The notes under the pieces: generated by a model
Seen by the model: only the letters and a program-made list of their open reading frames with translations
Database searches by the model: none
What the model was told of the DNA's origin: nothing
Origin: an uncultured Planctomycetia bacterium
GTDB lineage: Bacteria; Planctomycetota; GCA-002687715; DRQF01
Direction: 5' to 3'
NCBI GenBank assembly: GCA_964559135.1
Contig: CAZLGG010000005.1
Location: forward strand, 11,609 to 75,608
Length of the DNA: 64,000 bases
Translations under genes and position numbers: made by a program
Shown here: piece after piece, positions 3 through 14,846 of the stretch
Layout: every line of letters starts with the position of its first letter
Position numbering within the stretch: position 1 is the first letter of the stretch

Positions 3-3000
3 GGCAAGCAGATCGCTTTCCTCTCCGACCGTGACGCCGCAAGGCAGATCCACGTTATCCCCAGCGATGGCGGAATTCCGCGGCGTGTGACCCTCAATAC
101 GGAGGGGTACGGTCTCCAAGAGTGGCTTCCTGACGGCCAGGGATTCTTGACCCTGGCCCAGCGGGATCATTTCTGGCGTCGTGCGGCCCGCTTCTTCCTG
201 CGCCCGATGGACGGCACACAGGCCGAGCGCCTCCTCTTCGACGGCTACGGTCATGACGGGTGTCTCGACGCGACCGGCAACCTTCTTCTTTATGCTCGAG
301 AAGGCGCGCCGGTCTACCGCAAGCAGTACACGGGCTCTCAGGAGTCCCAGATATGGCTCTTCGACCGGAGCCAGGGAACCCATCGGTTGCTGCGCAAAGG
401 AAACGGCGGGTGCCGCTATCCCCTTTGGACCGAAAACCCCGGGGAGTTCCTCTACGTCTCCCAGGCCGACGGGACCTTCAACCTCTACCGAGGTCGCCTC
501 GGAGAAGACTCCGACCAACAACTCACCCGTTTCGAGGACGACGGTGTCCTTTTCCCCGCGATTTCCCGCAACGGTTCCAAAGTCGTCTTCCGGAGGCTCT
601 TCGACCTCTACAGTCTCGACCTGACGACGCCATCCCAACCCAAACGGCTGAGCATCACCGACGGCTCGGACCCCATCGTCAAGGAACACCGCAACGCCGT
701 TCTCGAGGCGGCCACCGATGCGTCCTACTCACCCGACGGCAAGGAGTGCTGTTTCACATCCGGCGGCGACCTTTGGGTGATGGACACGATCCTTCGGGAA
801 CCCGTGCGCATCACGCATTCACCGCAGGAGGAGCGTTCACCCCTTTTCGTGTCCTATGACGAGATCCTTTTCGTGAGCGACCAAGGCGGCCAAAGTGACA
901 TTTGGCGCGCGCGACGGAAGAATGACGACAAGTGGTTCTGGCAGCAGGAGGACTTCGACCTCGACAAGCTGACCGACGACGCGGATCTTGAGCGGGATCT
1001 CCGCCGGGTTCCGGAAAGCGACGAGGTTTGCTTCACGCGCGGTCGAGGCGACTTGATCCTCCTCGACCCCAAGACCGGGAAGTCCCGTCGACTGCTCGCG
1101 TCCTGGAACACTCCCCAGTACGATTTTTCCCCCGACGGCAAGTGGATCGCCTACGCCGTCGAGGACGGAAACTTCAATCGCGACGTGTTTCTGGCTCCGC
1201 TGGACGGCTCGCGGGCCCCGTTCAATCTTTCGCGCCACCCCGACACCGACGGAAGTCCCGCCTGGTCGAGCGACGGCAAGATCCTGGCCTTCGTGGGGCG
1301 CCATTGGAGGGACGAGGCCGACATCATCTACGTTCACCTCACCCAAAAGGGCGAGGACGAAGACGCAAGGCAAAGGAAGCTCGAGAAGGCGGTTGAAGCG
1401 ATGGCCAAGCGCAAGCACGCCAAGAAGAACAAGGCCAAGAAGTCCTCTCCCGCCGCCAAGTCCAAGAAGAAAACCGCCGACTCGGCCAAGAAACCGAAGA
1501 AGGTTTCCGTCGCCATCGACTTCGAGGGAATCCATGATCGGTTCCACCGCATCTCGATTCCGCGCAGCTTCGAATCAGGACTCTTTTTCTGGCCTGGCGA
1601 TGACAGACTCTGTTTTCAGGCTCAGATCGATGGGAAAAGAGGGCTCTACACGGTGACCTTCCCCGATCACCTGCGGCCGAAACTCCTCACGAGTTCGAGC
1701 CTTCGTCACCGCAAACCACTTGGCGAGGTGAAATCGATCTGCGGTCTCAGTGGCGGATCGCCGGCGCTCATGGACAAGAACGGACGCATCACGAAGCACG
1801 GGTTTAGCGTGAAGATCTCGTACCGTCTCGGTGATATCTACGAGGTCATCTTCGACCAGGCGTGGCGCGCCATGAGGGACGGCTGGTACGACCCTCGCAT
1901 GAACAACAAGAATTGGGACGAAATCCGACGCAAGTATGCTCCGGTCGCCAAGGAGTGCCTCGACGCCGCCTCGCTCTCCACCGTCTGCAACATGATGCTG
2001 GGCGAGCTCAACGGTTCGCACCTCGGCTTCCGCATGTCCCAGGGGACACTTCCCGGTGAGCAACGGCCGAGTCGGGGCCGCACATGGTCCCTCGAAACCC
2101 GTCATCTCGGTTGCCGCTTCGACCCCGCGTGGAAGGGCCCCGGCCTCAGGGTCAAGGACGTCATCAAAAAGACTCCCGCCGCCCGAAGCACGAGCCGAAT
2201 TCGTGCGGGCGAGATCGTCCTCGCCATCGACGGGAAACCGGTGGACCCCGGCATGGACATCGCCACGGTCCTCACCGTCGATCCCGATCGTTTCATCAAG
2301 GTCAAGGTGCAGGATGCCCAGGGCGAAACGCGCGTGGTGAGCATGCGCCCCACGAGTTATCGCTCCGTGCGCTCGCTGCTCTACGATCGATGGGTCGCCG
2401 ACAACGAACGCAAAGTGGAAGAGCTCTCCGGAGGTTCGCTCGGGTATCTCCACATCCGTGGGATGAACTTCAGAAGCTTCGAGAAATTCGAGGAAGAGCT
2501 TTTCCGGGTGGGGTACGGAAAAGACGGCCTCGTGATCGACGTGCGCGAGAACGGCGGCGGCTCGACGACGGACCACCTACTTACGGCCCTCACACAACCG
2601 GAACACGCTCTCACGCTTCCTCGGGGAGGCACGGAAAAGGACATCGGCTACCCGCAGGGCCGGAGAATCTACGCCACCTGGTCCAAACCCATCATCGTCC
2701 TCTGCAACCAGAACTCCTTCTCCAACGCGGAAATCTTCTCCCACGCCATCAAGAGCCTGAAGCGTGGTCGACTCGTCGGTGTTCGCACGGCGGGTGGCGT
2801 CATCTCCACCGGCGGGATGTCCATCATGGGCATGGCGTTCGTCCGGATGCCCTTCCGAGGATGGTTCGTGCTCCCCACGGGCGAGGACATGGAGCTCAAC
2901 GGCGCGGACCCCGAGGTGACCATCTGGCCCCTGCCGGGCGAATGGCCGAGCGGTAAGGATCAGCAGTTGGAAAAAGCCGTGGAACTGCTGTCCGAGGACG

Positions 3001-3056
3001 TGGCGACGTGGAAGGCCCGCCCCCGTCCGAAGCTGCGATACCGCACCGAGCGCTGA
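3..3056 (+). CDS. Tricorn-like S41 family peptidase (PD40/beta-propeller repeats, PDZ, S41 catalytic domain); 5'-truncated by the window edge
   Basis: Frame is open from base 3 (GKQIAFLSDRD...). Repeated SPDGK motifs, PDZ (IRAGEIVLAIDG), GYLHIRGM, IDVRENGGG and SFSNAEIF catalytic motifs. Confidence 0.9.
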   Translation, partial: GKQIAFLSDRDAARQIHVIPSDGGIPRRVTLNTEGYGLQEWLPDGQGFLTLAQRDHFWRRAARFFLRPMDGTQAERLLFDGYGHDGCLDATGNLLLYAREGAPVYRKQYTGSQESQIWLFDRSQGTHRLLRKGNGGCRYPLWTENPGEFLYVSQADGTFNLYRGRLGEDSDQQLTRFEDDGVLFPAISRNGSKVVFRRLFDLYSLDLTTPSQPKRLSITDGSDPIVKEHRNAVLEAATDASYSPDGKECCFTSGGDLWVMDTILREPVRITHSPQEERSPLFVSYDEILFVSDQGGQSDIWRARRKNDDKWFWQQEDFDLDKLTDDADLERDLRRVPESDEVCFTRGRGDLILLDPKTGKSRRLLASWNTPQYDFSPDGKWIAYAVEDGNFNRDVFLAPLDGSRAPFNLSRHPDTDGSPAWSSDGKILAFVGRHWRDEADIIYVHLTQKGEDEDARQRKLEKAVEAMAKRKHAKKNKAKKSSPAAKSKKKTADSAKKPKKVSVAIDFEGIHDRFHRISIPRSFESGLFFWPGDDRLCFQAQIDGKRGLYTVTFPDHLRPKLLTSSSLRHRKPLGEVKSICGLSGGSPALMDKNGRITKHGFSVKISYRLGDIYEVIFDQAWRAMRDGWYDPRMNNKNWDEIRRKYAPVAKECLDAASLSTVCNMMLGELNGSHLGFRMSQGTLPGEQRPSRGRTWSLETRHLGCRFDPAWKGPGLRVKDVIKKTPAARSTSRIRAGEIVLAIDGKPVDPGMDIATVLTVDPDRFIKVKVQDAQGETRVVSMRPTSYRSVRSLLYDRWVADNERKVEELSGGSLGYLHIRGMNFRSFEKFEEELFRVGYGKDGLVIDVRENGGGSTTDHLLTALTQPEHALTLPRGGTEKDIGYPQGRRIYATWSKPIIVLCNQNSFSNAEIFSHAIKSLKRGRLVGVRTAGGVISTGGMSIMGMAFVRMPFRGWFVLPTGEDMELNGADPEVTIWPLPGEWPSGKDQQLEKAVELLSEDVATWKARPRPKLRYRTER

Positions 3057-3069
3057 CGGGATCAGGCGG

Positions 3070-3843
3070 TCACAGGTCGGGATACAGGTCGACGCGGCGA
3101 TCGGCGAGAAACGAGAAGCGCTCGCGGCACGCCCGGACCTGCGCGGCCCCCACGGTGCCCGACACCTCGGCTTCCTGCCACGCCGCGGCGGCGATGACTT
3201 CGCCCATGGGGTCGATGAGAGCCGAGTCTCCCCGATAGACGAGGCCGGACCCCTCCCCGACACGATTCACGCCGAGGACGAACGCCTGGTTCTCCATGGC
3301 GCGGGCCCGCAGCAGCGTGCGCCACGCGGCGCTGCGCACGACGGGCCAGTTCGCGATGACGCAGAAGAGGTCCGTACCCTCGGCGGTCCGCCGGAACGGT
3401 TCGGGAAAACGCAGGTCGTAGCAGATCAAGGGTGTCACGCGAAGACCTTCCACGTCCAAGGTCTCGAGGGTGCAACCGGCCTCGAAGACCTCGTTCTCCC
3501 CCGCGAGGCTGAAGGGGTGGACCTTGTGGTAGAGGAGCCTCTCCCGGCCTTGCGGGTCGAAGAGCGCTGCGGCATTGCGCGGGCGCGGTTCGCCGGGCTC
3601 GGCGAAGCCACCCAGAATCCAGAGCCCGAGACGGGACGCTTCCTCCGCGAGGAACGACCTGATCTCGCCCGCCTTCGGGGCCACGAGGTCCGCCGCCATG
3701 CTGAAACCCGTCGCGAACATTTCGGGCAGGACGCACAGTCGCGCGCCCTCTTCCGCCGCCCGACTCAGGCGGGGTCGCAGGGCATCGAAGTTGGCGGACG
3801 GGTCTTCCCAGACGATGTCGCTTTGAATTCCCGTGATCCTCAT
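3070..3843 (-). CDS. Carbon-nitrogen hydrolase (nitrilase superfamily), omega-amidase YafV/Nit2-like
   Basis: Triad motifs LPEMF, YHKVH, ICYDLRFPE; ARAMENQ; ATGA overlap with the aminotransferase. Confidence 0.88.
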   Translation of the reverse strand: MRITGIQSDIVWEDPSANFDALRPRLSRAAEEGARLCVLPEMFATGFSMAADLVAPKAGEIRSFLAEEASRLGLWILGGFAEPGEPRPRNAAALFDPQGRERLLYHKVHPFSLAGENEVFEAGCTLETLDVEGLRVTPLICYDLRFPEPFRRTAEGTDLFCVIANWPVVRSAAWRTLLRARAMENQAFVLGVNRVGEGSGLVYRGDSALIDPMGEVIAAAAWQEAEVSGTVGAAQVRACRERFSFLADRRVDLYPDL

Positions 3844-5006
3844 GATCCCATCGTCTCCAATCTCCCTGCGGCCTCGCGCAGAGTGTCCATGGTCTTGCAG
3901 AACGCGAACCGTGCGAGCTTGCTCCCAGCAGCTGGATTCGCCGTGTAGAAGGCGCTCGGAGGAATGGCGGCGATGCCGACGTTGTCGATGAGGTGTCGGA
4001 CGAACTCCACATCCGTTCCCTCGAAGACCGCGCTGAAATCGGCAAGGACGAAATAGGTGCCCTCGGGAACGAAGGGAGACAACCCCGCCCGGCTCAACGC
4101 ATCGACGAGGAAGTCTCTCCGCTCCGAGTAGTCTCTCGAAAATTCGGTCAGATAGTCGTCCCGCAACTCATCCAACGCGAATGCGGCGGCCTTCTGAAGA
4201 GGGGTCGCCGTGGCGAAGGTCAAAAACTGATGGGCGGCTTGCGCGGCGGCGATCATGTCTTTTGGTCCCGTAGCCCACCCGACCTTCCACCCGGTTACGG
4301 AATAGCTCTTGCCGAGGCTGGAGACGCTCCAGGTCCTCTCCTTCATGCCGGGGAGAGTCGCCAGAGGAACATGCGTCGCCCCATCGTAGACGAGATACTC
4401 GTAGACCTCGTCGGTCAGCACGCGCAGCCCATGCTCCAAGCAGAGTTCAGCCACGATCTCCAACTCCTCGGTGTCGAAGACGCGCCCCGTGGGATTATGG
4501 GGCGAATTCAGAACGATGAGGCGCGTGCGGGGAGTGATGGCGCGTTCCAAGGCGCTCGACCGAATGCGAAAATCGGGCGCGTCGAGCGTGACGAACCTCG
4601 GCTTGGCGCCCGCCAACGCCGCGCAGGCGGGGTAGCTGTCATAGTAGGGTTCGAAAAACACCACCTCGTCGCCCGGATTCAGCATTCCGAGCATGGCGGC
4701 GGCAAGACCTTCGGTCGCGCCTGAATAGACTCCCACCTCGATCTGGGGATCGTATTCGAGTCCGTAGTCCGCGCGGCGGCGATCCGCGACGGCGCGGACG
4801 AGCTCGGGATGTCCCATCGATCGGGTGTATTGATTCTCTCCCCCATCCAGAGCCCGAGACGCCGCGCGGATGAGTTCTTTCGGTCCGTCGAAATCGGGAA
4901 AACCCTGGGACAGGTTGATGGCGCCCCGCTCCTGGGCGAGGCGCGTCATCTCACTGAAGATCGTGGTGCCGAAGGGTTCGAGTTTCTGGGCTTGAGCCGG
5001 TCGCAT
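3840..5006 (-). CDS. PLP-dependent class I/II aminotransferase (YbdL/glutamine transaminase K-like)
   Basis: AINLSQGFPDF, NSPHNPTG, DEVYE, SLGKSYSVTGWKVG. ATG at 5006 with GAGGTG SD upstream. Confidence 0.9.
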   Translation of the reverse strand: MRPAQAQKLEPFGTTIFSEMTRLAQERGAINLSQGFPDFDGPKELIRAASRALDGGENQYTRSMGHPELVRAVADRRRADYGLEYDPQIEVGVYSGATEGLAAAMLGMLNPGDEVVFFEPYYDSYPACAALAGAKPRFVTLDAPDFRIRSSALERAITPRTRLIVLNSPHNPTGRVFDTEELEIVAELCLEHGLRVLTDEVYEYLVYDGATHVPLATLPGMKERTWSVSSLGKSYSVTGWKVGWATGPKDMIAAAQAAHQFLTFATATPLQKAAAFALDELRDDYLTEFSRDYSERRDFLVDALSRAGLSPFVPEGTYFVLADFSAVFEGTDVEFVRHLIDNVGIAAIPPSAFYTANPAAGSKLARFAFCKTMDTLREAAGRLETMGS

Positions 5007-5044
5007 GGACACCTCGCATCTGGAACCGAAGAAAGGACTCGAGG

Positions 5045-5098
5045 ATCATATTCCAGGTCGGCGTCCATGGGAACGCGGCCCCGGTTTCCTGCTATCCT
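5045..5098. promoter_or_regulatory. Back-to-back -10 elements of a divergent promoter pair
   Basis: Minus-strand TATGAT (5045-5050) upstream of the aminotransferase; plus-strand TGcTATCCT extended -10 (5090-5098) 8 nt before ATG 5107. Confidence 0.45.
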
Positions 5099-5106
5099 CT
5101 CTCGCC

Positions 5107-5934
5107 ATGGAACACGCCCTCGAGCAGTACTTCCTTCATCTCGAGCGGGCGGGATTGAAGCCGGCCTCCGACTGGCGACTTCATCGCGACCCCGACGTGA
5201 AGCCAAGCACAGCCAAGGCCCGCGATCCCGTGTCCGGGTGCCTGGAGCTCAGCCCGGGTCTGAGGCTCCTGGAGTCGGTCTCCGGGGGAATTCGTTCCGA
5301 TCACGCGACCCTTGCCGTGGCGCGCGTTCTCGTGGAGCGCTCCGAAGAATTGTCGGGAACGCGACTCCTCGAAATCGGTTGCGGCACCGGCGTTCTTTCC
5401 ATTCTCGCGGCACGCCTGGGGGCCCGCGTCACGGCGACCGATCTCGACGAAGACGCCCTGGCTCTCGCCGCGAACAACGCTCGAGCCAATCAGGTCGACG
5501 TCGATGTTCGCTACGGCTCACTTCTCGATCCACTCGATTCCAGTGAGAGATTCCGTTGGATCGTCGCCAACCTGCCCCAAAAACCTGCTTCGAAGGAGGG
5601 TCTCTTACCCCTTGCGAACTGGGGCGGCCCCGAGGGCGATGAACTGTTTCAGGGGCTCTTCGGAGGCATCGTCCCCCACCTGGATCCCGAAGGGCGAGCG
5701 CTTTTCTTCATGCACTCCCTTCCCCACCCGCGGTTCCTGGCTCGTCTCCAAGAGGATTTCGACCTTCGCCCCCTGCGCTGGTATCTCCGGTGGATCGAGC
5801 GCGGCGAATTCGGATCTCTTGGCGAGGTCTTCGAGGAGAGGTCCCGCAAGGGGCTCTCCCATCTCCATCACGAAGGCGACGATGCGGCGCTCGTGTGTTG
5901 CGTTTGGTCGGCTCAGCCGGTGAATTCGTCATGA
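5107..5934 (+). CDS. Class I SAM-dependent methyltransferase (HemK/PrmA-like fold)
   Basis: Motif I LLEIGCGTG, ATDLD, IVANLPQ (NPPY-like). Start placed at ATG 5107, not 5005, which overlaps the divergent gene. Confidence 0.8.
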   Translation: MEHALEQYFLHLERAGLKPASDWRLHRDPDVKPSTAKARDPVSGCLELSPGLRLLESVSGGIRSDHATLAVARVLVERSEELSGTRLLEIGCGTGVLSILAARLGARVTATDLDEDALALAANNARANQVDVDVRYGSLLDPLDSSERFRWIVANLPQKPASKEGLLPLANWGGPEGDELFQGLFGGIVPHLDPEGRALFFMHSLPHPRFLARLQEDFDLRPLRWYLRWIERGEFGSLGEVFEERSRKGLSHLHHEGDDAALVCCVWSAQPVNSS

Positions 5935-6737
5935 AGCGGTTTCTCGTCATCAATGCTGACGACGCGGGACTCGACCCCCGCTTGGACGCCGTCATTCTCG
6001 AACTGGCCCGTGGACCGTTGAAGTCGGCATCCGTCTTGACGACGCAGAAGGGATTCCGAAGCTTCACGGCCCGTGCGTTGGATCTCGGCATGGGCCTCGG
6101 CCTCCATTTCGATCTCACGACGGGCCCGGCGCTGGGGGGGCCCTACGCAACGCTGACGGACCGGCAGGGCCGCTTCATCACCCCGAAAGAGGAGGTCTGG
6201 AAGCGAGCGCTCGCAGGGGCCATCGACCCTCGCGAGGTCGCCATCGAGGCGCGTCTTCAGTGGGAGGCTCTCCTCGACGCCGGCGTCCGACCGGACCACA
6301 TCGACGGACACAATCACGTCCATGTCCTTCCGGGGGTCTTCGAGGGCCTCGTCGCCGCACTGGGTCACGTCACCGACGTATTCTTCCGCATCCCTCTCGG
6401 ACGCGGTCCCGACACGGGGCGCTGTCCCCACGTCCGCCGTCACGCCGCCGCACTGCGCTCCCATCCGGATCGGATTCCCGCTGGATGGCGACGGGTACAG
6501 GCCTTCACGGGCCATCGTTTCATGGAGAGGCCCACCAGCCTGTCCGAACTCGAGGTCTTCGACGACGAGGACGTACGGTCCGTCGAATGGATGGTTCATC
6601 CAGGCCGCTCCGACCTCTCTCCTTTCCGCGCGGACGGTCGCCGGAGGCAGGAGGTCGACGTGCTTCGCTCGCAGGAATTGAGGCTGCAACTCGAGAAGCA
6701 TGGCCTCGTCTCCTGCCGATTCGGGGATATCCCGTGA
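5931..6737 (+). CDS. ChbG/HpnK (YdjC) family carbohydrate deacetylase
   Basis: INADDAG, GLHFDLT, HIDGHNHVH, EWMVHPG motifs; ATGA overlap with the methyltransferase. Confidence 0.88.
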   Translation: MKRFLVINADDAGLDPRLDAVILELARGPLKSASVLTTQKGFRSFTARALDLGMGLGLHFDLTTGPALGGPYATLTDRQGRFITPKEEVWKRALAGAIDPREVAIEARLQWEALLDAGVRPDHIDGHNHVHVLPGVFEGLVAALGHVTDVFFRIPLGRGPDTGRCPHVRRHAAALRSHPDRIPAGWRRVQAFTGHRFMERPTSLSELEVFDDEDVRSVEWMVHPGRSDLSPFRADGRRRQEVDVLRSQELRLQLEKHGLVSCRFGDIP

Positions 6738-7723
6738 GAGTCCTCATCATCGAACCACGCCTCGCGCACCGAGGGCGAGGAAACCTGACGACGACGCGTC
6801 GATGGACACAGGGACTCAGAGCAAAAGGGGTCGATGTCGTGACCGCGGCGCCGGACGAAGTCGGGGGTCTCGACGATGACGCGTTCGATGTCGTTCATGC
6901 CCATCACGCCGGCCGTTCCGGGCCCGCCGGGGTCACTCTGGCGCACAGGCACCGCCTTCCTCTCGTCGTGAGTTCCGGGGGCACCGACATCCGGGGGCCC
7001 CGCGCTTTCACCCCCGAGACGCAAGACGTCTTGCGGAAGGCCGACCTCGTCATCTCACCCTTCTCCTCCGACGCCGACGTCCTCGAGGACGCCCTGGGAG
7101 GCGCGGTCCCCTTCGCAGCCGTACCTCGCGGAATCCCCGTCGGAACACCGCCCGTGCCCCCGGAGGTTTCGGAGTCCAATCGCTGGCTCTTCTCGGGCGG
7201 TCTACGGGACGTCAAAGACCCCCTCCTCGCCGCGCGTACCGCCGCGGCCGCGCGACGCGCGGGCTTCGACGTCGTCCTGGACATCTACGGACCGGCGATC
7301 GACGAGGGCCTTCTCCGTGACCTCGAAGACGCACTCGCCCAGACCCCCGACCGCTACCACGGCGAGGTGTCCCCGCGAGCCATGGGCGAAATCTACACGT
7401 CCCATGATCTTCTGATCAACAGCTCGATCAGCGAAGGAGCCTCGAACAGCATCCTCGAAGGGTGGCGAAGCGGGCTCGTCGTGCTGGCCCGACGCGCACC
7501 GGGGAACGTCGAAATGCTCCGCGATGCGCGCAAGGAAATCGCCTTCCTCTTCGACGAGAAGCGTCTCCTCGATGCGCCGATGCGCGATTGGCTGAGGGCA
7601 GCCATGGGCGATCGCCGCGCCAACGCGCGACGTGCGTGGGAACACGTCAGGGACCACCACTCCCTGGAGAGGGAGATCGATGCACTCCTCGGGGCCTACC
7701 GGCGCGTGGTTGCTATGGGCTGA
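6734..7723 (+). CDS. GT4 glycosyltransferase of the SenB/GLT1D1-like subgroup
   Basis: GNLTTTRRW, HAGRS, GGTD, GGLRDVKD, SSISEGASNSILE (E-x7-E), PGNVEML; GTGA overlap with the deacetylase. Confidence 0.8.
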   Translation: MRVLIIEPRLAHRGRGNLTTTRRWTQGLRAKGVDVVTAAPDEVGGLDDDAFDVVHAHHAGRSGPAGVTLAHRHRLPLVVSSGGTDIRGPRAFTPETQDVLRKADLVISPFSSDADVLEDALGGAVPFAAVPRGIPVGTPPVPPEVSESNRWLFSGGLRDVKDPLLAARTAAAARRAGFDVVLDIYGPAIDEGLLRDLEDALAQTPDRYHGEVSPRAMGEIYTSHDLLINSSISEGASNSILEGWRSGLVVLARRAPGNVEMLRDARKEIAFLFDEKRLLDAPMRDWLRAAMGDRRANARRAWEHVRDHHSLEREIDALLGAYRRVVAMG

Positions 7724-10439
7724 AGCGAGCCGGGTCCACGGGGAGCGTGACTCCTTCGGCCGGAGCGATGCGCAACTGCGTCTCCACGCTCTCCAGCCTG
7801 ACCGCTGCCAGCCAGGCTTGCATGCCCCGAATCGCCGTCAGCCGCCCGCGACTGTTTTCGGTTGCGAAATTCATGGTTCGGAGGCGGGAAGGGGCGGTCA
7901 GGGACGGACCGGCCAGTTTCAGGACGACCAAGATTCCCTGACCCGTGGGACTCGGAGCAAGGAAACTCGTCGCTTCCACACTCCAGGTGTCCTCGTGCCT
8001 TGGAGACGCGACGCCCCCCACGGGTCCGAGAGCGGCCAAAGCCTCCAGGGCCGCCAGACGCCAGACCTCCGGTCCCTGCTCCGCGACCCGCTCGAGGGTG
8101 AGGCGTGCGCCCGGGGGCGCCCGATGCGCGAGAGCCAGCCGCCTGAGCTCGCCGACGATACGTCCCTCCAAGGCGCGGACGCTCCGGTAGCGCCGACGGG
8201 AGAACTCGAACATGGGCACGCGCCTGGGGTCCCCACTCGCACTCAGGACGCCCAATAGGGGCAGAGCCATGGGCTCCGGCAGGTCGGGAAGCAGCAGACT
8301 GGCGACCGCCCAGTCGGCGGCGAACTCGTCTCCGCGCTCGGCGAGCAAAGACACGGCCCGAAACAGGTCCTCCCCCTGGAGAGCGAAAAGAGCGCGCTTG
8401 CGAATGCGCGGATTCGAAGACTCGAGGTCCGGTGCCCGAGCGAGGAGTGCCTCCGCGTCCTTCGCGGTCTTCACGTGGTTTCCTGAATCGGATGCATTCT
8501 CGTCGGTCGGCGCGGGAAACACCGGCGTCTTGGGGTGAGCATTGGGAGCCACGGGGATGCGGACGGCAAAGGCCAACGACGCATCGAGGAACGTCACCAG
8601 CTCATCCCGGCGCTGCTGGGAGAGACCAAGAGCGCGCGGATCATCCTCGTGGGGATCCTTCTCGAGATCGAAGAAAGCGGTCCGCCCGGTGGCCTCGTCG
8701 CGGATGATCTTCAACGACCCGTCGATCGCGGCCACCTGACGCCCGCCCCCCGGCGTCGCCAACTGAGCCAAAGCGAAGGGGTGCGGCTCGGCCTCGTCCA
8801 GAAGAGTGGGCAGAAGCGACTCGCCTTGCAGGGGCTGTGTCGGAGACACCTCGAAGGCCTCCAGGACGGTGGGCGCCAAATCGATGAGTTCGACGAGTCG
8901 TCCCACGTTCTTGCCGACGGTTTGTCCGGGCCACCGGAGGATCAAAGGCACTCGGAGGACTTCTTCGTAGAGGGTCGAGCCGTGAAAGCTCCCCCCATGT
9001 TCTCCGAATTCCTCTCCATGGTCGCCGTGGATGACGACGAGGCTCGTGTCCAGGACACGTCGGCCGATCTCACTGGAGAAGAACTCGGACAGCCTGCGAT
9101 CGACATGGAGGATGGCCGCGTCATAGAGATCCACCGGGCGGTTCCCGAAGTCGGAGGTCTTCTTCCGCGGCGGCCCGTGAACCTCCATGACATGGAGCCA
9201 GTGGAACCCCCCTTGCTCTTTCGTCTCGGCCACATCTCGCGCAAGTTCGCGGAGCCCGTCCTCGATGCGTCCAGGTCCGGTCGATCCGGGCAAGTGCCAC
9301 ACGGCGAATCCCCGCGAGAACGCCCGGAAAATCGTCTCCAGATGTTCCCGGCCATAGGCCGGGTAACCAAACGTCGACCAGCCTCGCCGGGAAAGAATCT
9401 CGGCAAGCGTCGACTCCTCGACCGGTGGATGACCGAGACCCTGCCGCCGGAAGTTGAGAGCGTCCGGGTATCGTCCGATGAACGTCGAGAGAATGCTTCC
9501 CCGACTGTCGGAAGCCTGGGAATGGGCGCGGGCAAACACGAAGGACGACTCGGACAACGCGTCGAGAAAGGGCGTGGTCCGTCGGGTGTAACCCCCAAAG
9601 CCGCAGTGGTCGGCTCGGAGGGCGTCGATGGTGATCCAGACCACGCGTCGAGGCTTCTTCAGCCCGAAACTCCTCTCCAGCGCGCCGAGCCGCCCCGACA
9701 CGACGGGCCCCCTCCTCTCGAGGAAGATCTCGATATCCGTCGAGTGGATCGGCGGACGATGGGGTCGCAGCCGTGAGACGATCCATGCGTACAGCCTCTC
9801 GCCGGGCGCCCTCGGCGTGATGGGGGCCGGCCGATTCGCCAACACACCCAAGCCCACGGCCAACGTGATGGCCGCCACGACGCCCATGCCGGGTCGCTCT
9901 CGGAGAGTTGCCCCGAATCGCGCCGCGGCGTAGACGGCGATGAGCGCTGCCAACGCATGCGGTCCCGGATACTGGGCCGCATAGACATGCCGCGCCGCCA
10001 GGGCCCCCCCCAGGGCGACGAAGAGCATGATGAGACCCGCGATGGAGAACTTTCCCCTCTGGATTCCACCGTCCAACTCGAGAAACACCGCCGCTCCCGC
10101 GGCCAGGATCAACCCGGCCGCCAGAACGGGACCCTGCCGTCCCGCAAGATGAGTGCTCCCCAGGAATCGTCCCGAGACCCACAGGGCCGGCCCCAGCAGC
10201 AAGAGCAAGTCACCGAGCAGGAGGGCTGCGGGGTGAGTCCGCCCGTCGACCAAGAAGAAGGCCAAGAACGCACTTCTCAGGCGTCGAAACCCATGGCGCA
10301 CTGGAACCAGGAGAACGCCCGACAAGGCCACGCCCCACAGGTCGGCCGCCACATCGCGAAACGAGACACCAAGCCCGGAGGCCAAAGCGCCCAAGGTGAG
10401 CACGGCGCCACCCATGAGCACCGCCTGCCACCGCCTCAT
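7713..10439 (-). CDS. Membrane-anchored sulfatase-like hydrolase/transferase (alkaline phosphatase superfamily) with a helical-repeat C-terminal region
   Basis: Several N-terminal TM helices; ITIDALRADH, HVMEVH, GDHGEEFGEHG..HG, VPLI, DLAPT, FFDLEKDPHE. Confidence 0.82.
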   Translation of the reverse strand: MRRWQAVLMGGAVLTLGALASGLGVSFRDVAADLWGVALSGVLLVPVRHGFRRLRSAFLAFFLVDGRTHPAALLLGDLLLLLGPALWVSGRFLGSTHLAGRQGPVLAAGLILAAGAAVFLELDGGIQRGKFSIAGLIMLFVALGGALAARHVYAAQYPGPHALAALIAVYAAARFGATLRERPGMGVVAAITLAVGLGVLANRPAPITPRAPGERLYAWIVSRLRPHRPPIHSTDIEIFLERRGPVVSGRLGALERSFGLKKPRRVVWITIDALRADHCGFGGYTRRTTPFLDALSESSFVFARAHSQASDSRGSILSTFIGRYPDALNFRRQGLGHPPVEESTLAEILSRRGWSTFGYPAYGREHLETIFRAFSRGFAVWHLPGSTGPGRIEDGLRELARDVAETKEQGGFHWLHVMEVHGPPRKKTSDFGNRPVDLYDAAILHVDRRLSEFFSSEIGRRVLDTSLVVIHGDHGEEFGEHGGSFHGSTLYEEVLRVPLILRWPGQTVGKNVGRLVELIDLAPTVLEAFEVSPTQPLQGESLLPTLLDEAEPHPFALAQLATPGGGRQVAAIDGSLKIIRDEATGRTAFFDLEKDPHEDDPRALGLSQQRRDELVTFLDASLAFAVRIPVAPNAHPKTPVFPAPTDENASDSGNHVKTAKDAEALLARAPDLESSNPRIRKRALFALQGEDLFRAVSLLAERGDEFAADWAVASLLLPDLPEPMALPLLGVLSASGDPRRVPMFEFSRRRYRSVRALEGRIVGELRRLALAHRAPPGARLTLERVAEQGPEVWRLAALEALAALGPVGGVASPRHEDTWSVEATSFLAPSPTGQGILVVLKLAGPSLTAPSRLRTMNFATENSRGRLTAIRGMQAWLAAVRLESVETQLRIAPAEGVTLPVDPARFSP

Positions 10440-11575
10440 CGTCGGAATTCCCCGTAGACGCGAAAGCCGATCCGCTCCGACCTGGCAAAGGGGCTCTCGC
10501 CCCTACGATAGGCCAGATGGATTCGATCGGTGATCGGGTCGAGCGTCTCTCCCATGACAACCCGTCGTCGCTCGCCGTCCTTGGTCAACACCCACTCCGA
10601 AACGCCGGACGCGCAGTGGAACAATCCATAGGGAGAACGAAGTTCGGGATGACTTCGGACTCGCAGAACAGGATCCAGAATGCCGCGCGCCTGAGGAGAC
10701 TTCGGTTCGAGCCCCCAGGGGAAGGGCCTCCCGTCGACACCTCGAGCGCCGCGTTCCCATTCCGAACGGGTGGGGAGTCGGTGGCGAAGGATGGGGGAAC
10801 CAGACGCCTCGGAATCATCCAGATACCGACAGAACGCCAGGGCGTCGAAAAAGCTCGCCCAAGACATGGGTGCGTCGGGCGACCCTTTCCGCAAGACGGT
10901 CTCCCAGACGTCTCTCCCCTCGACGATCGGCCGATGACCGGGACAGCCCTTGGGTGAGAGGGTTCGCTCCTCGTCCGAGCAAAAGGGCCCGAAACCTCGA
11001 GCGTCTCGATCCGCAGCTTCATCCCTTGCCAGAAAGCGTGCGTACTCGCCGACGGACACCTCGGTGAGAGAGAGGAAAAAGCCATCCGTGTCGTGCGGCA
11101 TTCCCGCGTCGTCGATGGGCACCTCGAGATGCATTCCCATGCCGGCGAGTCCGGCCCCCCCGGGCACATAGGCATACCCATCGGGAGGCGGTGCCAGGCG
11201 CAGCGTCAATGCGTCGCCGGAGCGCAGGAGGACCTCGATGGATCGATCTCGCCACCGAACGGTCCAAACGCCCTCGGGGAGCGGCAAGCTCTCGTTCGAT
11301 CCACGGAGCGTCCAGACCCGCTCGACGGGGTGGGATGGCCGTGCGAACCAAGACGCTCGTCGACTCATCGCCGCGTGCAGAGTTTCACCGTCTTCGAATC
11401 CCTGGACGACGACACGCGCCACGGGAGGGGATTCCGCCCGTTTGAGAGCACGGGAGAGATCGCGCCGTCCGGTCCAACTCCACACCAGGCCTCCCACGGT
11501 CACGGCCAAGAGGAAGGACAAGGTCCTGAGGGGATGAAGACGGGGCGGCCCTGATTCCACGTCAGCAACTCCCAT
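10436..11575 (-). CDS. SUMF1/FGE-sulfatase-fold protein with N-terminal TM anchor
   Basis: TEVSVGEY, RLPTRSEWERGARG, FPWG, SPYGLF, VSEW, IGFR; ATGA-coupled to the sulfatase-like gene. Confidence 0.8.
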   Translation of the reverse strand: MGVADVESGPPRLHPLRTLSFLLAVTVGGLVWSWTGRRDLSRALKRAESPPVARVVVQGFEDGETLHAAMSRRASWFARPSHPVERVWTLRGSNESLPLPEGVWTVRWRDRSIEVLLRSGDALTLRLAPPPDGYAYVPGGAGLAGMGMHLEVPIDDAGMPHDTDGFFLSLTEVSVGEYARFLARDEAADRDARGFGPFCSDEERTLSPKGCPGHRPIVEGRDVWETVLRKGSPDAPMSWASFFDALAFCRYLDDSEASGSPILRHRLPTRSEWERGARGVDGRPFPWGLEPKSPQARGILDPVLRVRSHPELRSPYGLFHCASGVSEWVLTKDGERRRVVMGETLDPITDRIHLAYRRGESPFARSERIGFRVYGEFRR

Positions 11576-11749: not shown

Positions 11750-13051
11750 TTGCAGCGCGCTATCATCCTCTCATTGTTCGTTTCCCTCGGCGTTGGCGTC
11801 GTCCGCGGCCAGGAAAAACCCGTCGTGTTTACGGGTGCACGCATTCTTCCCATCAGCGGTCCGCCCATCGAGGAAGGAGTCCTCATCATCCAAGGGGGGA
11901 AGATCGTCTCCGTAGGCCCCTTGGAAGGCGCGAACATTCCGCCCGACGCCACGCGTCACGAGGTCTCGGGCGTCATCATGCCGGGTCTCATCGACACCCA
12001 CAGCCACATCGGCGGCCCTTCGGGCGGCGACGCCTCCCAGCCCATTCAACCCGAGTGTCGCGTCCTCGATTCCATCAATGTCCTCGACCCCTCGATCCAG
12101 AAGGCCCAGGCCGGCGGCATCACAACCGTCAACGTCATGCCTGGATCGGGCCACCTGAGCTCCGGTCAAACGGTTTACATCAAGCTGAGGGACGCCGAAA
12201 GCATCGAAGACCTCCTCATCCGCGACGAGAACGGACAGGGCTTGGGCGGCCTCAAGATGGCCAACGGGACGAATTCCCAGAGGAAACCACCGTTCCCAGG
12301 CACGCGGGGCAAGTCCGCGGCCCTCGTCCGCCAGGCCTACATCGACGCCATCGAGTACAGGAACAAGATCCGCGCGGCAGGCGATGACGTCTCCAAGAGA
12401 CCGGCGCGCAACCTGAGACTCGAAGCTCTCGTCGAAGTCCTCGACGGGCGCCGCGTGGTACACCACCACACGCACCGCGCCGACGACATCGTCACGGTGC
12501 TCCGATTAGCGAAGGAGTTCGGTTTTCGCGTCGTTCTCCATCACGTCAGCGAAGGGTGGAAGGTCGCAAATGAGATCGCCCGCGCCAAGGTCCCCTGTTC
12601 CGTCATCCTTCTGGACAGCCCGGGAGGCAAGCTCGAAGCCACAGGCCTTCGAGCCGAAACCGCGGGCATTCTCGAGCGGGCGGGGGTGGACGTCACGATC
12701 CACACGGACGACCCGATCACGGACTCCCGCCTCTTCTTGCGATCGGGCGCACTCGCCGTCCGAGCAGGCATGACGCGCAAAGGGGCTTTGGAGGCTCTCA
12801 CGATCGCGGGTGCACGCGCCCTCGACCTCGAGAAGCGGATCGGAAGTCTCGAAGCCGGCAAAGATGCCGACTTCATTCTCCTGTCCGGTGACCCCTTCAG
12901 CGTCAACACGAAGGTTCTCGCAACCTGGGTCGAGGGCAGAAAGGTCTTCGACCGCAGCGACCCCAAGGACCGCCTTTGGGCTGTCGGCGGCTGGGGCGCC
13001 AGTCGGGGGCAGATCTTCGAACTCGGATGCCTGACGGGGGAGATCAAGTGA
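11750..13051 (+). CDS. Secreted metal-dependent amidohydrolase (imidazolonepropionase-like family)
   Basis: Signal peptide; PGLIDTHSH, LKMANG, HTHRADD, LHH, HTDDP, GSLEAGKDAD. TTG start with AAGGAG SD. Confidence 0.85.
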   Translation: MQRAIILSLFVSLGVGVVRGQEKPVVFTGARILPISGPPIEEGVLIIQGGKIVSVGPLEGANIPPDATRHEVSGVIMPGLIDTHSHIGGPSGGDASQPIQPECRVLDSINVLDPSIQKAQAGGITTVNVMPGSGHLSSGQTVYIKLRDAESIEDLLIRDENGQGLGGLKMANGTNSQRKPPFPGTRGKSAALVRQAYIDAIEYRNKIRAAGDDVSKRPARNLRLEALVEVLDGRRVVHHHTHRADDIVTVLRLAKEFGFRVVLHHVSEGWKVANEIARAKVPCSVILLDSPGGKLEATGLRAETAGILERAGVDVTIHTDDPITDSRLFLRSGALAVRAGMTRKGALEALTIAGARALDLEKRIGSLEAGKDADFILLSGDPFSVNTKVLATWVEGRKVFDRSDPKDRLWAVGGWGASRGQIFELGCLTGEIK

Positions 13052-14271
13052 TGCATCGAAAAACTCTCCCGACCGTCCTCGCAGCATGCCTCGTTCTCTC
13101 GAGTGTCCCTATGGCTCAGAACTTGGCAGTAAAGGCGGCCCGCATCCACACCGTCTCCGGCCAAGTCATCGAAAACGGGGTCATCGTGGTTCGCGATGGC
13201 AAGATCGCCGCGATCGGGCCCGCCGCCGCCACTCAGATTCCCGAGGGGTTCCAGACCCTCGAAGCGGCCATCGCCACACCCGGCCTCATCGACGCCCACA
13301 GCGTCGCCGGGCTTGGCGGTTGGCTCAACCAGCCGCACGATTCCGATGAGCATGAGACCGACCCGGCCATTCAACCGGAGCTTCGCGCTCTCGATGCCTA
13401 CAATTCCCGCGAGCCCCTCATCGCGTGGTTGCGCGGCCACGGCGTCACGACGATTCATACGGGGTTCGACACGCGCGGACTGATTTCGGGAACGAGCGTT
13501 CTCGTCAAGACCCGGGAGGCCCCCCTCGCTGACGTGGTCCTGAATCCGAAGGCCATGGTCCTCGCCAGTCTTTCCGACGGCGCCCGCGCCACCGGCGGCA
13601 AGTCACCAGGCACCAAAGCCAAAATGGCTGCGATGATTCGCCAGGCCCTCATCGAAGCCGGAGAGTATGCAGCCAAGCGCTCGCTCGAAGACGCGACCAA
13701 GCGACCGGACCGCAACCTTCGCCGGGAGGCCCTGGCGGACGTCTTGGCGGGGAAGCGCCCTCTCCTCGTCACGGCCGAACGCGACCGCGACATTCGAACG
13801 GCGCTCCGTCTTCAAAAAGAATTCGGATTCCGCCTCATCCTCGACGGCGGCGCGGAGATCTACCGTGCTCTCGATGTCGTCTCCGCGGCCAAGATCCCGG
13901 TCATCATTCACCCCACGATGGCCCGCAGTCGGGGCGAGCGTGAAAACCTTTCCGTCGAGACCGCGGGAAAGCTGCGGGCGAACGGCATTCTCTTCGGATT
14001 TCAAAGCGGGTACGAGTCCTACGTCCCCAAGACTCGTGTCGTCCTCTTCGAAGCGGCCATTGCCGCCGCCAACGGCCTGGGTGCCGACGCGGCGCTCCGC
14101 GCCCTCACGCTGGATGCCGCACGCATCCTCGGTGTGGAGAAGCGCGTGGGTTCCTTGGACGTGGGCAAGGACGCGGACATCGTGCTGTTCGACGGCGCAC
14201 CTTTCGAATACACGACCCACGTGGTGGGCGTGATCATCGATGGACATGTCGTGAGCCAAACAAAGCGATGA
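13051..14271 (+). CDS. Secreted amidohydrolase-fold protein with degenerate metal ligands
   Basis: Paralog of the upstream gene (PGLIDAHS, GSLDVGKDAD); signal peptide; TGATG coupling. Confidence 0.82.
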   Translation: MHRKTLPTVLAACLVLSSVPMAQNLAVKAARIHTVSGQVIENGVIVVRDGKIAAIGPAAATQIPEGFQTLEAAIATPGLIDAHSVAGLGGWLNQPHDSDEHETDPAIQPELRALDAYNSREPLIAWLRGHGVTTIHTGFDTRGLISGTSVLVKTREAPLADVVLNPKAMVLASLSDGARATGGKSPGTKAKMAAMIRQALIEAGEYAAKRSLEDATKRPDRNLRREALADVLAGKRPLLVTAERDRDIRTALRLQKEFGFRLILDGGAEIYRALDVVSAAKIPVIIHPTMARSRGERENLSVETAGKLRANGILFGFQSGYESYVPKTRVVLFEAAIAAANGLGADAALRALTLDAARILGVEKRVGSLDVGKDADIVLFDGAPFEYTTHVVGVIIDGHVVSQTKR

Positions 14272-14846
14272 CTCTGGGCCTTGCGAGCGCGACCGACGCC
14301 TCATGGACGAAGCTGGCCTTGGCCCACCTGGATGAGATCCTCGTCGATCACGCCCACTGTGAGAAGAAGGCCGCCAGCACGGCGCTGAGCCTCGTGTTCA
14401 AGTATATGGAGCACACGCATTTCCTCCCCGTGTTGAGCGCCCTCGCCCGAGAGGAATTGCGGCATTTCGAGCAGGTCCTGCGGCACTTGGATGCGCGGGA
14501 GATTCCATTCCGCAGGCAAAAGCCGTCCCCGTACGCAGGAAGACTCATGGAAGCCTGCCGCAAGGACGAACCCGATCGCCTCCTCGACGTGCTCATCATC
14601 TGCTCCCTCATCGAGGCCCGAAGCCTCGAACGCATGGGGCTCCTCCGCGATGCCATCGACGAGGAGGATCTCTCGCGTTTTTACGGGAATCTTCTGGCGA
14701 GCGAGGCGCGCCACCGCGCCGCCTATCTGGACCTCGCCCGAAGCGTTTTTCCGCCCGAAGACGTTGCACGTCGCCATGGTGAACTGGCCCTGCACGAAGC
14801 CCGGGTGATCGCGGAAGCTCCGCCGTGGCCCCGCATGCACTGTTAG
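14268..14846 (+). CDS. miaE: tRNA-(ms2io6A37) hydroxylase
   Basis: DHAHCEKKAA, EELRHF, IEARS, SEARH di-iron motifs. Confidence 0.9.
   Translation: MTLGLASATDASWTKLALAHLDEILVDHAHCEKKAASTALSLVFKYMEHTHFLPVLSALAREELRHFEQVLRHLDAREIPFRRQKPSPYAGRLMEACRKDEPDRLLDVLIICSLIEARSLERMGLLRDAIDEEDLSRFYGNLLASEARHRAAYLDLARSVFPPEDVARRHGELALHEARVIAEAPPWPRMHC

Follow-up and report, generated by a model that had tools for sequence, protein, structure and literature searches.

A three-gene module with a SenB-related glycosyltransferase in an uncultured Planctomycetia bacterium, and its proposed N-methylglucosaminide product

Three overlapping genes and the families of their products

We analysed a 64,000-nucleotide stretch of DNA (hereafter the window) from contig CAZLGG010000005.1 of an uncultured Planctomycetia bacterium, focusing on three plus-strand genes that encode an S-adenosylmethionine (SAM)-dependent methyltransferase of HemK/PrmA type (5107-5934, 275 aa), a YdjC/ChbG-family carbohydrate de-N-acetylase (5931-6737, 268 aa) and a GT-B glycosyltransferase (6734-7723, 329 aa). 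An earlier sequence-only reading of this DNA had described the genes as coupled by short overlaps, and the coordinates bear this out: the YdjC start codon and the methyltransferase stop share the four bases ATGA at 5931-5934, and the GTG start of the glycosyltransferase shares the four bases GTGA with the YdjC stop at 6734-6737. Its placing of all three genes behind one promoter was not confirmed. The presumed operon promoter region is the 94 bp divergent gap between an aminotransferase gene and the methyltransferase (5013-5106), and a consensus scan of 4700-8000 returned no plus-strand sigma-70 site, which is weak evidence either way, and a single sigma-70-like match on the minus strand (5073-5045). 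The methyltransferase start at 5107 is supported by the alignment of its orthologues over the N-terminal 60 aa. The three genes most likely constitute a cytoplasmic, self-contained enzyme set.

The deacetylase is a clear member of the YdjC family, matching PF04794 at 133.8 bits (cut-off 29.7) over profile positions 2-265 of 266, and it is the only gene of this family that a search of the window's genome returned. It scores below the cut-offs of the two more specific models, ChbG (86.5 bits, cut-off 227) and HpnK (56.7 bits, cut-off 232.6). Aligned to the chitooligosaccharide deacetylase 7vi8, it matches in the NADD, (M/L)HF and H.HVH stretches.

The methyltransferase belongs to class I, HemK/PrmA type, by its Pfam matches (PrmA 48 bits, cut-off 22; MTS 44.5 bits, cut-off 23), and carries GCGTG as motif I and, as motif IV, an NLPQ variant (ANLPQKP) of (N/D)PP(Y/F). 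Its NCBIfam matches are the protein methyltransferases HemK2/Mtq2, PrmC and PrmA, all under their equivalog cut-offs, so that it is not PrmC, PrmA or Mtq2 itself. The top match among solved structures is an N-methyltransferase of apramycin biosynthesis (23ks/23lq, E 3e-9) with the same ANLP motif, and further top matches are PrmA, an amine methylase, and the gentamicin N-3'' methyltransferase GenN (5u18/5tyq). Judging from the depositors' molecule name, 23ks/23lq would be AprI, the apramycin 7'-N-methyltransferase, which PMC9338882 describes as a HemK-family enzyme. From these relatives we propose that the window's enzyme is an amino-sugar N-methyltransferase. Copies linked to the same partner genes elsewhere conserve DHA(T/S), GCGTG, ANLP(Q/H)KP and HSLP.

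The sequence-only reading had recognized six motifs in the glycosyltransferase as those of SenB, the selenosugar synthase of selenoneine biosynthesis, and of GLT1D1-like relatives. All six are present in the translation: GNLTTTRRW (residues 16-24), HAGRS (58-62), GTD (83-85), GGLRDVK (155-161), SISEGASNSILE (231-242) and GNVEML (257-262). The Pfam families Glyco_trans_1_4 and Glycos_transf_1 are both over cut-off. A sequence search of solved structures places SenB proteins in its first four ranks (E 7e-13 to 2e-11), with the fifth match at 1e-3, which upholds the description of the protein as SenB-like. A profile built from 52 family sequences likewise retrieves SenB first (E 1e-39), next BshA (2jjm, 3mbo, 5d00; E about 5e-22 to 9e-22) and, behind it, MshA (3c4q, 3c48, 7qsg).

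Membership of SenB itself did not hold. The glycosyltransferase is a cousin of SenB, not SenB, because it reaches 91.2 bits against the SenB model TIGR04348 (cut-off 300), falls in a separate clade, and has no SenA or SelD neighbour, unlike SenB of the same phylum. When 55 rows were placed in a maximum-likelihood tree by a quick IQ-TREE run, 12 same-phylum SenB rows occupy one side of a branch with Shimodaira-Hasegawa-like approximate likelihood ratio test (SH-aLRT) support of 100, and the window's protein sits on the other side of this split within a clade of 23 rows (support 99). The neighbouring group consists of proteins resembling NF038229, the 'GPMC system family 4 glycosyltransferase' (hereafter GPMC-like), which is also the best NCBIfam match of the window's protein (141.5 bits, below the cut-off of 400). 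Among 150 nearest representative proteins listed, the 71 that were scanned all scored higher against the GPMC model than against SenB, neither model reaching its cut-off. BshA (TIGR03999, cut-off 273.7) is absent among the nine NCBIfam matches of the glycosyltransferase at E<=1. This clade, distinct from SenB though related to it, is new. The sequence-only reading had itself allowed that the glycosyltransferase might belong to a sister clade with a different acceptor, and this caveat is the part of its interpretation that the evidence favours.

The pocket and catalytic residues of SenB do not discriminate between these groups. According to PMC10891094, the functional residues of SenB are N20, T23, H58, R61, T83, T85, R155, K158, E231, H235 and E239. 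Alignment to the solved SenB chains shows that all are retained in the window's protein except T83 (G) and H235 (N), and that GGTD and GGLR stand where SenB has TGTD and GHLR, a difference that the sequence-only reading had pointed out. The same pocket and catalytic residues are found in GPMC-like proteins as well, while members of the window's clade commonly have H or K in place of R61. In a motif table of 99 sequences, GGTD is the marker of the window's clade, and both SenB and GPMC-like proteins have TGTD. The motif set thus marks the whole superfamily of SenB, GPMC-like and window-clade proteins and not SenB specifically. Two of the residues, R155 and K158, are the usual diphosphate binders of family 4 glycosyltransferases (GT4).

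Relatives were surveyed in 301 sampled genomes of the phylum and in a subset of a second, Bacillota-type phylum; most of these genomes are incomplete metagenome-assembled genomes (MAGs), and genes in them were called with a crude open reading frame (ORF) picker and checked by homology. True SenB, over cut-off, is present in 28 of the 301 genomes, and bona fide clusters of SenB with SenA are common in the phylum. SenA adjoins it in seven of the 11 SenB loci scanned (21 of 41 called ORFs, with L061 left out) and EgtD in one more, and neither YdjC nor the methyltransferase lies next to SenB in any of 12 SenB loci. A profile search of the window's genome found no SenB over cut-off (the glycosyltransferase of the trio scores 90.6 bits there), and SenA was not found in this 92%-complete genome (best score 76.9 bits, cut-off 420), in keeping with the earlier statement that neither SenA nor SelD is present at the locus. 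In some genomes a SenB-type gene coexists with another glycosyltransferase from the superfamily to which the window's protein belongs; the SenB-type gene is over cut-off in G044 and G119 and just below it in G083 and G108.

Recurrence of the module and replacement of its deacetylase

Homologues of the glycosyltransferase (E<=1e-20) were found in 27 of the 301 genomes, the window's own included, and in all five other genomes of the same family. With the window's own locus left out and flanks of 1.5 kb considered, 14 of 20 related loci have YdjC immediately before the glycosyltransferase, and nine of them also contain the methyltransferase; six loci have the glycosyltransferase alone, and contig ends truncate two more. 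One related locus, in a MAG labelled Planctomycetota, is 73% identical and has the same neighbours as the window. The pairing extends to the sister GPMC-like group, in which YdjC is upstream or adjacent in 7/10 loci and the methyltransferase is also present in 2/10, and to metagenome contigs of the window's clade, where 9 of the 11 loci that could be assessed have YdjC upstream and four of the six with sufficient upstream DNA have the methyltransferase. Neither gene was present in six metagenome loci with SenB-like proteins. The sequence-only reading had asked whether the three-gene arrangement recurs; it does, and because the same set recurs in many genomes it is not a chance grouping.

The position of the methyltransferase varies, from before YdjC (window) to after the glycosyltransferase (L086) or convergent with it (L126). 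At L086 (G213:C503, about 84-1997, minus strand) YdjC comes first and a GPMC-like glycosyltransferase and the methyltransferase share one frame of ~640 aa, although the contig measures only 2.8 kb and an assembly or frameshift artefact is possible. A search for longer relatives of the glycosyltransferase yielded nine proteins, all generic multi-domain GT4 enzymes and none with a YdjC or methyltransferase domain, a weak negative since the G213 fusion was missed too. At another locus (L060, G232:C28, 9219-10115, minus strand) an ATP-grasp gene of the D-Ala-D-Ala-ligase type occupies the place of the methyltransferase, directly upstream of the YdjC-glycosyltransferase pair, which suggests an alternative derivatisation of the free amine.

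No fourth conserved gene was found beyond lineage-level synteny, either by Pfam and NCBIfam scans of 37, 17 and 20 flanking ORFs or by all-against-all clustering of the ORFs of 29 loci. The neighbours shared within a lineage are an aminotransferase and a CN-hydrolase for the family of the window, whereas a second family has MetH, PhzF and an S41 peptidase there and a third has Xdh-type genes. Major facilitator superfamily (MFS) transporters and Ser/Thr kinases each adjoin the module at two loci, which may be chance. A literature search found no paper on such a module or on the 'GPMC system', most subscription journals being outside its reach.

A clue to the chemistry comes from the Bacillota-type phylum, where GPMC-like relatives are present in 13 of 251 genomes. 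YdjC is beside none of the 13, and a PIG-L/LmbE deacetylase lies directly upstream in seven (L104, L107-L111 and L113); the four of these deacetylases that were scanned are BshB1-like by NCBIfam (113-124 bits). That two unrelated de-N-acetylase families occupy the same slot argues that both perform the same chemical step. BshC was not seen in four such genomes with both a GPMC-like glycosyltransferase and LmbE. At L111 and L113, MBL-fold hydrolases follow the glycosyltransferase, the one at L111 weakly matching NF038231, 'GPMC system MBL fold metallohydrolase'. At a further locus of a GPMC-like glycosyltransferase (L105, G329:C3) the gene adjoins one for methylglyoxal synthase, an arrangement that resembles the mgsA-bshB1-bshA operon of B. 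subtilis; this genome has a BshC over cut-off (428 bits) and no BshA over cut-off (best 145 bits), and in this single case BshA might be replaced by the GPMC-like enzyme.

The genes around the trio in the window do not accompany it beyond close relatives. Divergent from the operon is a minus-strand aminotransferase and CN-hydrolase/omega-amidase-like gene region (3070-5012), in which the aminotransferase, starting at 5012, scores 395-498 bits against methionine-aminotransferase-like models. The aminotransferase/CN-hydrolase pair flanks the module in same-family genomes, and MetH does so at L053 and L056, two loci from another family; a loose tie to methionine and SAM metabolism may be the reason, or chance. 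Convergent with the operon is a minus-strand gene for a 908-aa membrane protein with a sulfatase/alkaline-phosphatase-type domain and a long hydrophobic N-terminus (7713-10439), the stop of which overlaps the 3' end of the glycosyltransferase gene by 11 bases. It is overlapped in turn by a minus-strand gene for a 379-aa FGE-sulfatase-domain protein (10436-11575), and the pair is retained in the 73%-identical relative (L019) and not in other module loci. We considered the FGE-domain gene as a hidden SenA or EgtB and rejected it, as it has no such NCBIfam match and adjoins the sulfatase-family gene. Farther out on the plus strand are a tricorn-like S41 peptidase with PD40 repeats (87-3056, 989 aa), two adjacent amidohydrolase-family genes (11750-14271) and a MiaE tRNA hydroxylase (14268-14846). 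In G287, a genome of the same family, MiaE immediately follows the glycosyltransferase. Among the genes scanned between 87 and 17909 there is no MBL-fold partner (NF038231).

A proposed pathway and its alternatives

The reading towards which we lean, with modest confidence, is that the module makes an N-methylglucosaminide, N-methyl-GlcN-X, from uridine diphosphate N-acetylglucosamine (UDP-GlcNAc) and a small, probably anionic acceptor X. In a first step the glycosyltransferase would move an N-acetylhexosamine (HexNAc), most likely the GlcNAc of UDP-GlcNAc, onto X to give GlcNAc-X, a reaction that has its parallels in the use of malate by BshA, of inositol phosphate by MshA and of selenophosphate by SenB. 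YdjC would then strip the N-acetyl group to leave glucosaminyl-X (GlcN-X), and the HemK/PrmA-type methyltransferase would act on the freed 2-amino group to yield a glucosaminide with one N-methyl group, or possibly two or three. For the first two steps, HexNAc transfer and then de-N-acetylation, the argument lies in the exchange of deacetylases and in BshA and MshA being the nearest solved enzymes after SenB. The retained basic and polar residues of the acceptor site, together with the nature of the nearest solved enzymes, suggest that X is small and anionic, for example a hydroxy-acid or phospho-compound. N-methylation is indicated by the apramycin, PrmA and gentamicin N-3'' methyltransferases among the top solved matches and by the ATP-grasp alternative at L060. 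The donor sugar, the order of the steps, methylation of nitrogen rather than of oxygen or selenium, and the small anionic nature of X are what we infer from these lines of evidence.

Several observations weigh against this pathway. YdjC is not in the searched flanks at three of 15 window-clade genome loci (L030, L039, L041), and the methyltransferase is absent from many loci, so that the three steps are not obligatorily linked. The methyltransferase resembles amino-sugar N-methyltransferases only modestly (E 3e-9 over about 100 aligned residues), protein-lysine and protein-glutamine methyltransferases score close behind, and the atom that the enzyme would methylate is deduced from sequence relationships. 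In addition, five of the six selenophosphate-pocket residues given in PMC10891094 are retained (N17, H58, R61, T84 and R158, with T83 replaced by G82), as is the counterpart of SenB K158 (K161), so that the sequence would permit a selenophosphate-like acceptor. Finally, selD is present in 47 of 49 genomes with the module (window-clade or GPMC-like) vs 170 of 252 others, and in the Bacillota-type phylum in 13 of 13 module genomes vs 178 of 251 overall.

Two alternatives, which we regard as unlikely to a similar degree, each keep part of the scheme. The first makes X a lipid or a precursor of the membrane or cell envelope, the product being an N-methylated glucosaminyl lipid, by analogy with the deacetylation of GlcNAc-hopanoids by HpnK-type enzymes or with GlcN-phosphatidylglycerol (GlcN-PG). 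Many GT4 enzymes do act on lipids, YdjC has a sub-threshold HpnK-like match (56.7 bits) and the glycosyltransferase a faint match to GlcN-PG synthase (16 bits); an MFS transporter also lies just downstream of the glycosyltransferase at two unrelated loci, L049 and L098. Across the flanks, however, the module shows no consistent link to genes for membrane proteins, flippases or lipid synthesis, and the nearest solved enzymes, SenB, BshA and MshA, all take small soluble acceptors.

The second accepts GlcN-X as proposed and gives the methyltransferase another target, which could be a hydroxyl or carboxyl group on either sugar or aglycone, or a protein such as a ribosomal protein or release factor, as for its relatives PrmA and HemK. 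Its absence from many YdjC-glycosyltransferase loci would fit this, as would its NCBIfam matches to protein methyltransferases, all of them under cut-off. Against it stand the natural fusion of glycosyltransferase and methyltransferase, the retention of the gene with the pair despite changes of order (window, L086, L126), the amino-sugar N-methyltransferases among its top solved matches, and the conservation of DHAT, ANLP(Q/H)KP and HSLP in module-linked copies.

Bacillithiol synthesis by the trio can be rejected. On another contig the window's genome carries a bshC-like gene (201 bits, below 265.8), a PIG-L/LmbE gene (102 bits) and BshA (488 bits, over cut-off) side by side (C6:29281-32449; L073, L075, L083), and it probably makes bacillithiol or a close analogue by this route. 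Because such a canonical cluster exists elsewhere in the genome, the trio represents a second pathway.

The selenium interpretation of the sequence-only reading holds that a SenB-like step on selenophosphate or a thio-analogue gives 1-seleno- or 1-thio-GlcNAc, which the methyltransferase caps at the selenol or thiol and YdjC deacetylates, leaving a methylseleno-glucosamine like the mammalian excretory selenosugars. We consider it very improbable. In its favour are the SenB proteins as closest solved relatives, the retained pocket residues and K158 counterpart, and the distribution of selD given above. The window's genome has selD on another contig (C1:35112-36035, minus strand, L009, 374.7 bits) with one in-frame TGA, and its SelD is probably selenocysteine-containing. 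A single in-frame TGA is also present in most selD matches of the phylum. For the first 27 module genomes a naive Fisher test of co-occurrence with selD gives p=0.0015, and the two module genomes without selD are 84% and 90% complete. The co-occurrence is high, but the base rate of selD is itself about 70% (217 of 301 genomes), and its absence is concentrated in a few whole families (for instance f7 with selD in 1/15 and f15 in 4/15) that also have no module; lineage or lifestyle can explain such a pattern, and the Fisher test ignores relatedness, so that the co-occurrence is confounded and decides nothing. The glycosyltransferase fails the SenB model and lies outside the SenB clade, the 'pocket' residues are conserved superfamily-wide, GPMC-like proteins included, and selD never adjoins the module in any inspected locus, whereas same-phylum SenB adjoins SenA. 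The best solved relatives of the methyltransferase are amino-sugar N-methyltransferases and not Se- or S-methyltransferases, and the exchange of YdjC for BshB-like deacetylases is reminiscent of pathways to O-glycosides. The findings are no evidence for a selenosugar pathway. A broader version, in which the whole non-SenB branch, this operon included, is a second route to selenium or sulfur small molecules that makes a capped amino-selenosugar for storage or export, would, if true, explain the selD counts and strikes us as just as improbable.

If the N-methylglucosaminide pathway is correct, it adds a widespread and unstudied module that makes an undescribed N-methyl-glucosamine conjugate. With the sister group counted, the module is present in about one in six of the sampled genomes of the phylum, its hosts being uncultured and mostly anaerobic Planctomycetota-type bacteria, and other phyla have relatives of it. 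Possible roles for the product would be those of a compatible solute, a cofactor or thiol scaffold, or a secreted metabolite. Whatever the product, the SenB motif set on its own does not identify selenosugar synthases, and mining for these should therefore use the hidden Markov model cut-off together with SenA context. NCBI's uncharacterised 'GPMC' group also gains a chemical logic, namely HexNAc transfer and de-N-acetylation with YdjC and LmbE interchangeable.

Comparison with known systems

SenB (TIGR04348; PDB 8fbx, 8jjn, 8jjq, 8k5u) resembles the window's glycosyltransferase in its GT-B fold family, its length of about 330 aa and the motifs GN..T..RW (in the N-terminal loop), HA.RS, GTD, LR.VK and SEG...N..LE, but pairs with no deacetylase, whereas the window's enzyme is paired with YdjC. 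The GPMC GT4 proteins (NF038229) are closer, being the sister group in the tree and often having YdjC upstream in this phylum; they differ in having TGTD where the window has GGTD, the window has no MBL-fold partner, and the 400-bit cut-off of the model is reached by none of the 301 genomes. The Atlas model of the glycosyltransferase has the animal (eukaryotic) protein GLT1D1 as one of its listed structural neighbours (TM 0.82), which we treat as a lead only.

ChbG/YdjC (7vi8) and HpnK share with the window's deacetylase the Pfam YdjC family and the aligned metal-binding and catalytic Asp and His stretches, but the window has no chb or hpn gene context. The apramycin N-methyltransferase shares the ANLP motif IV and, if it is AprI, HemK-family membership. 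In contrast to it, GenN and PrmA, the window's methyltransferase family conserves 60 aa at the N-terminus and 70 aa at the C-terminus that are peculiar to it, and no aminoglycoside cluster is present at the window.

A further parallel is with bacillithiol (BshA/BshB) and mycothiol (MshA/MshB), in which GlcNAc transfer is followed by de-N-acetylation, BshA and MshA each placing the GlcNAc of UDP-GlcNAc on a small anionic acceptor on which a deacetylase acts next. The window's deacetylase, unlike BshB and MshB, is of the YdjC family and not LmbE, and its module has no cysteine ligase and a methyltransferase instead. The two-step logic is thus already known from bacillithiol and mycothiol, and the new elements are a YdjC-type instead of an LmbE-type deacetylase and an amino-sugar-type methyltransferase as the putative third step.

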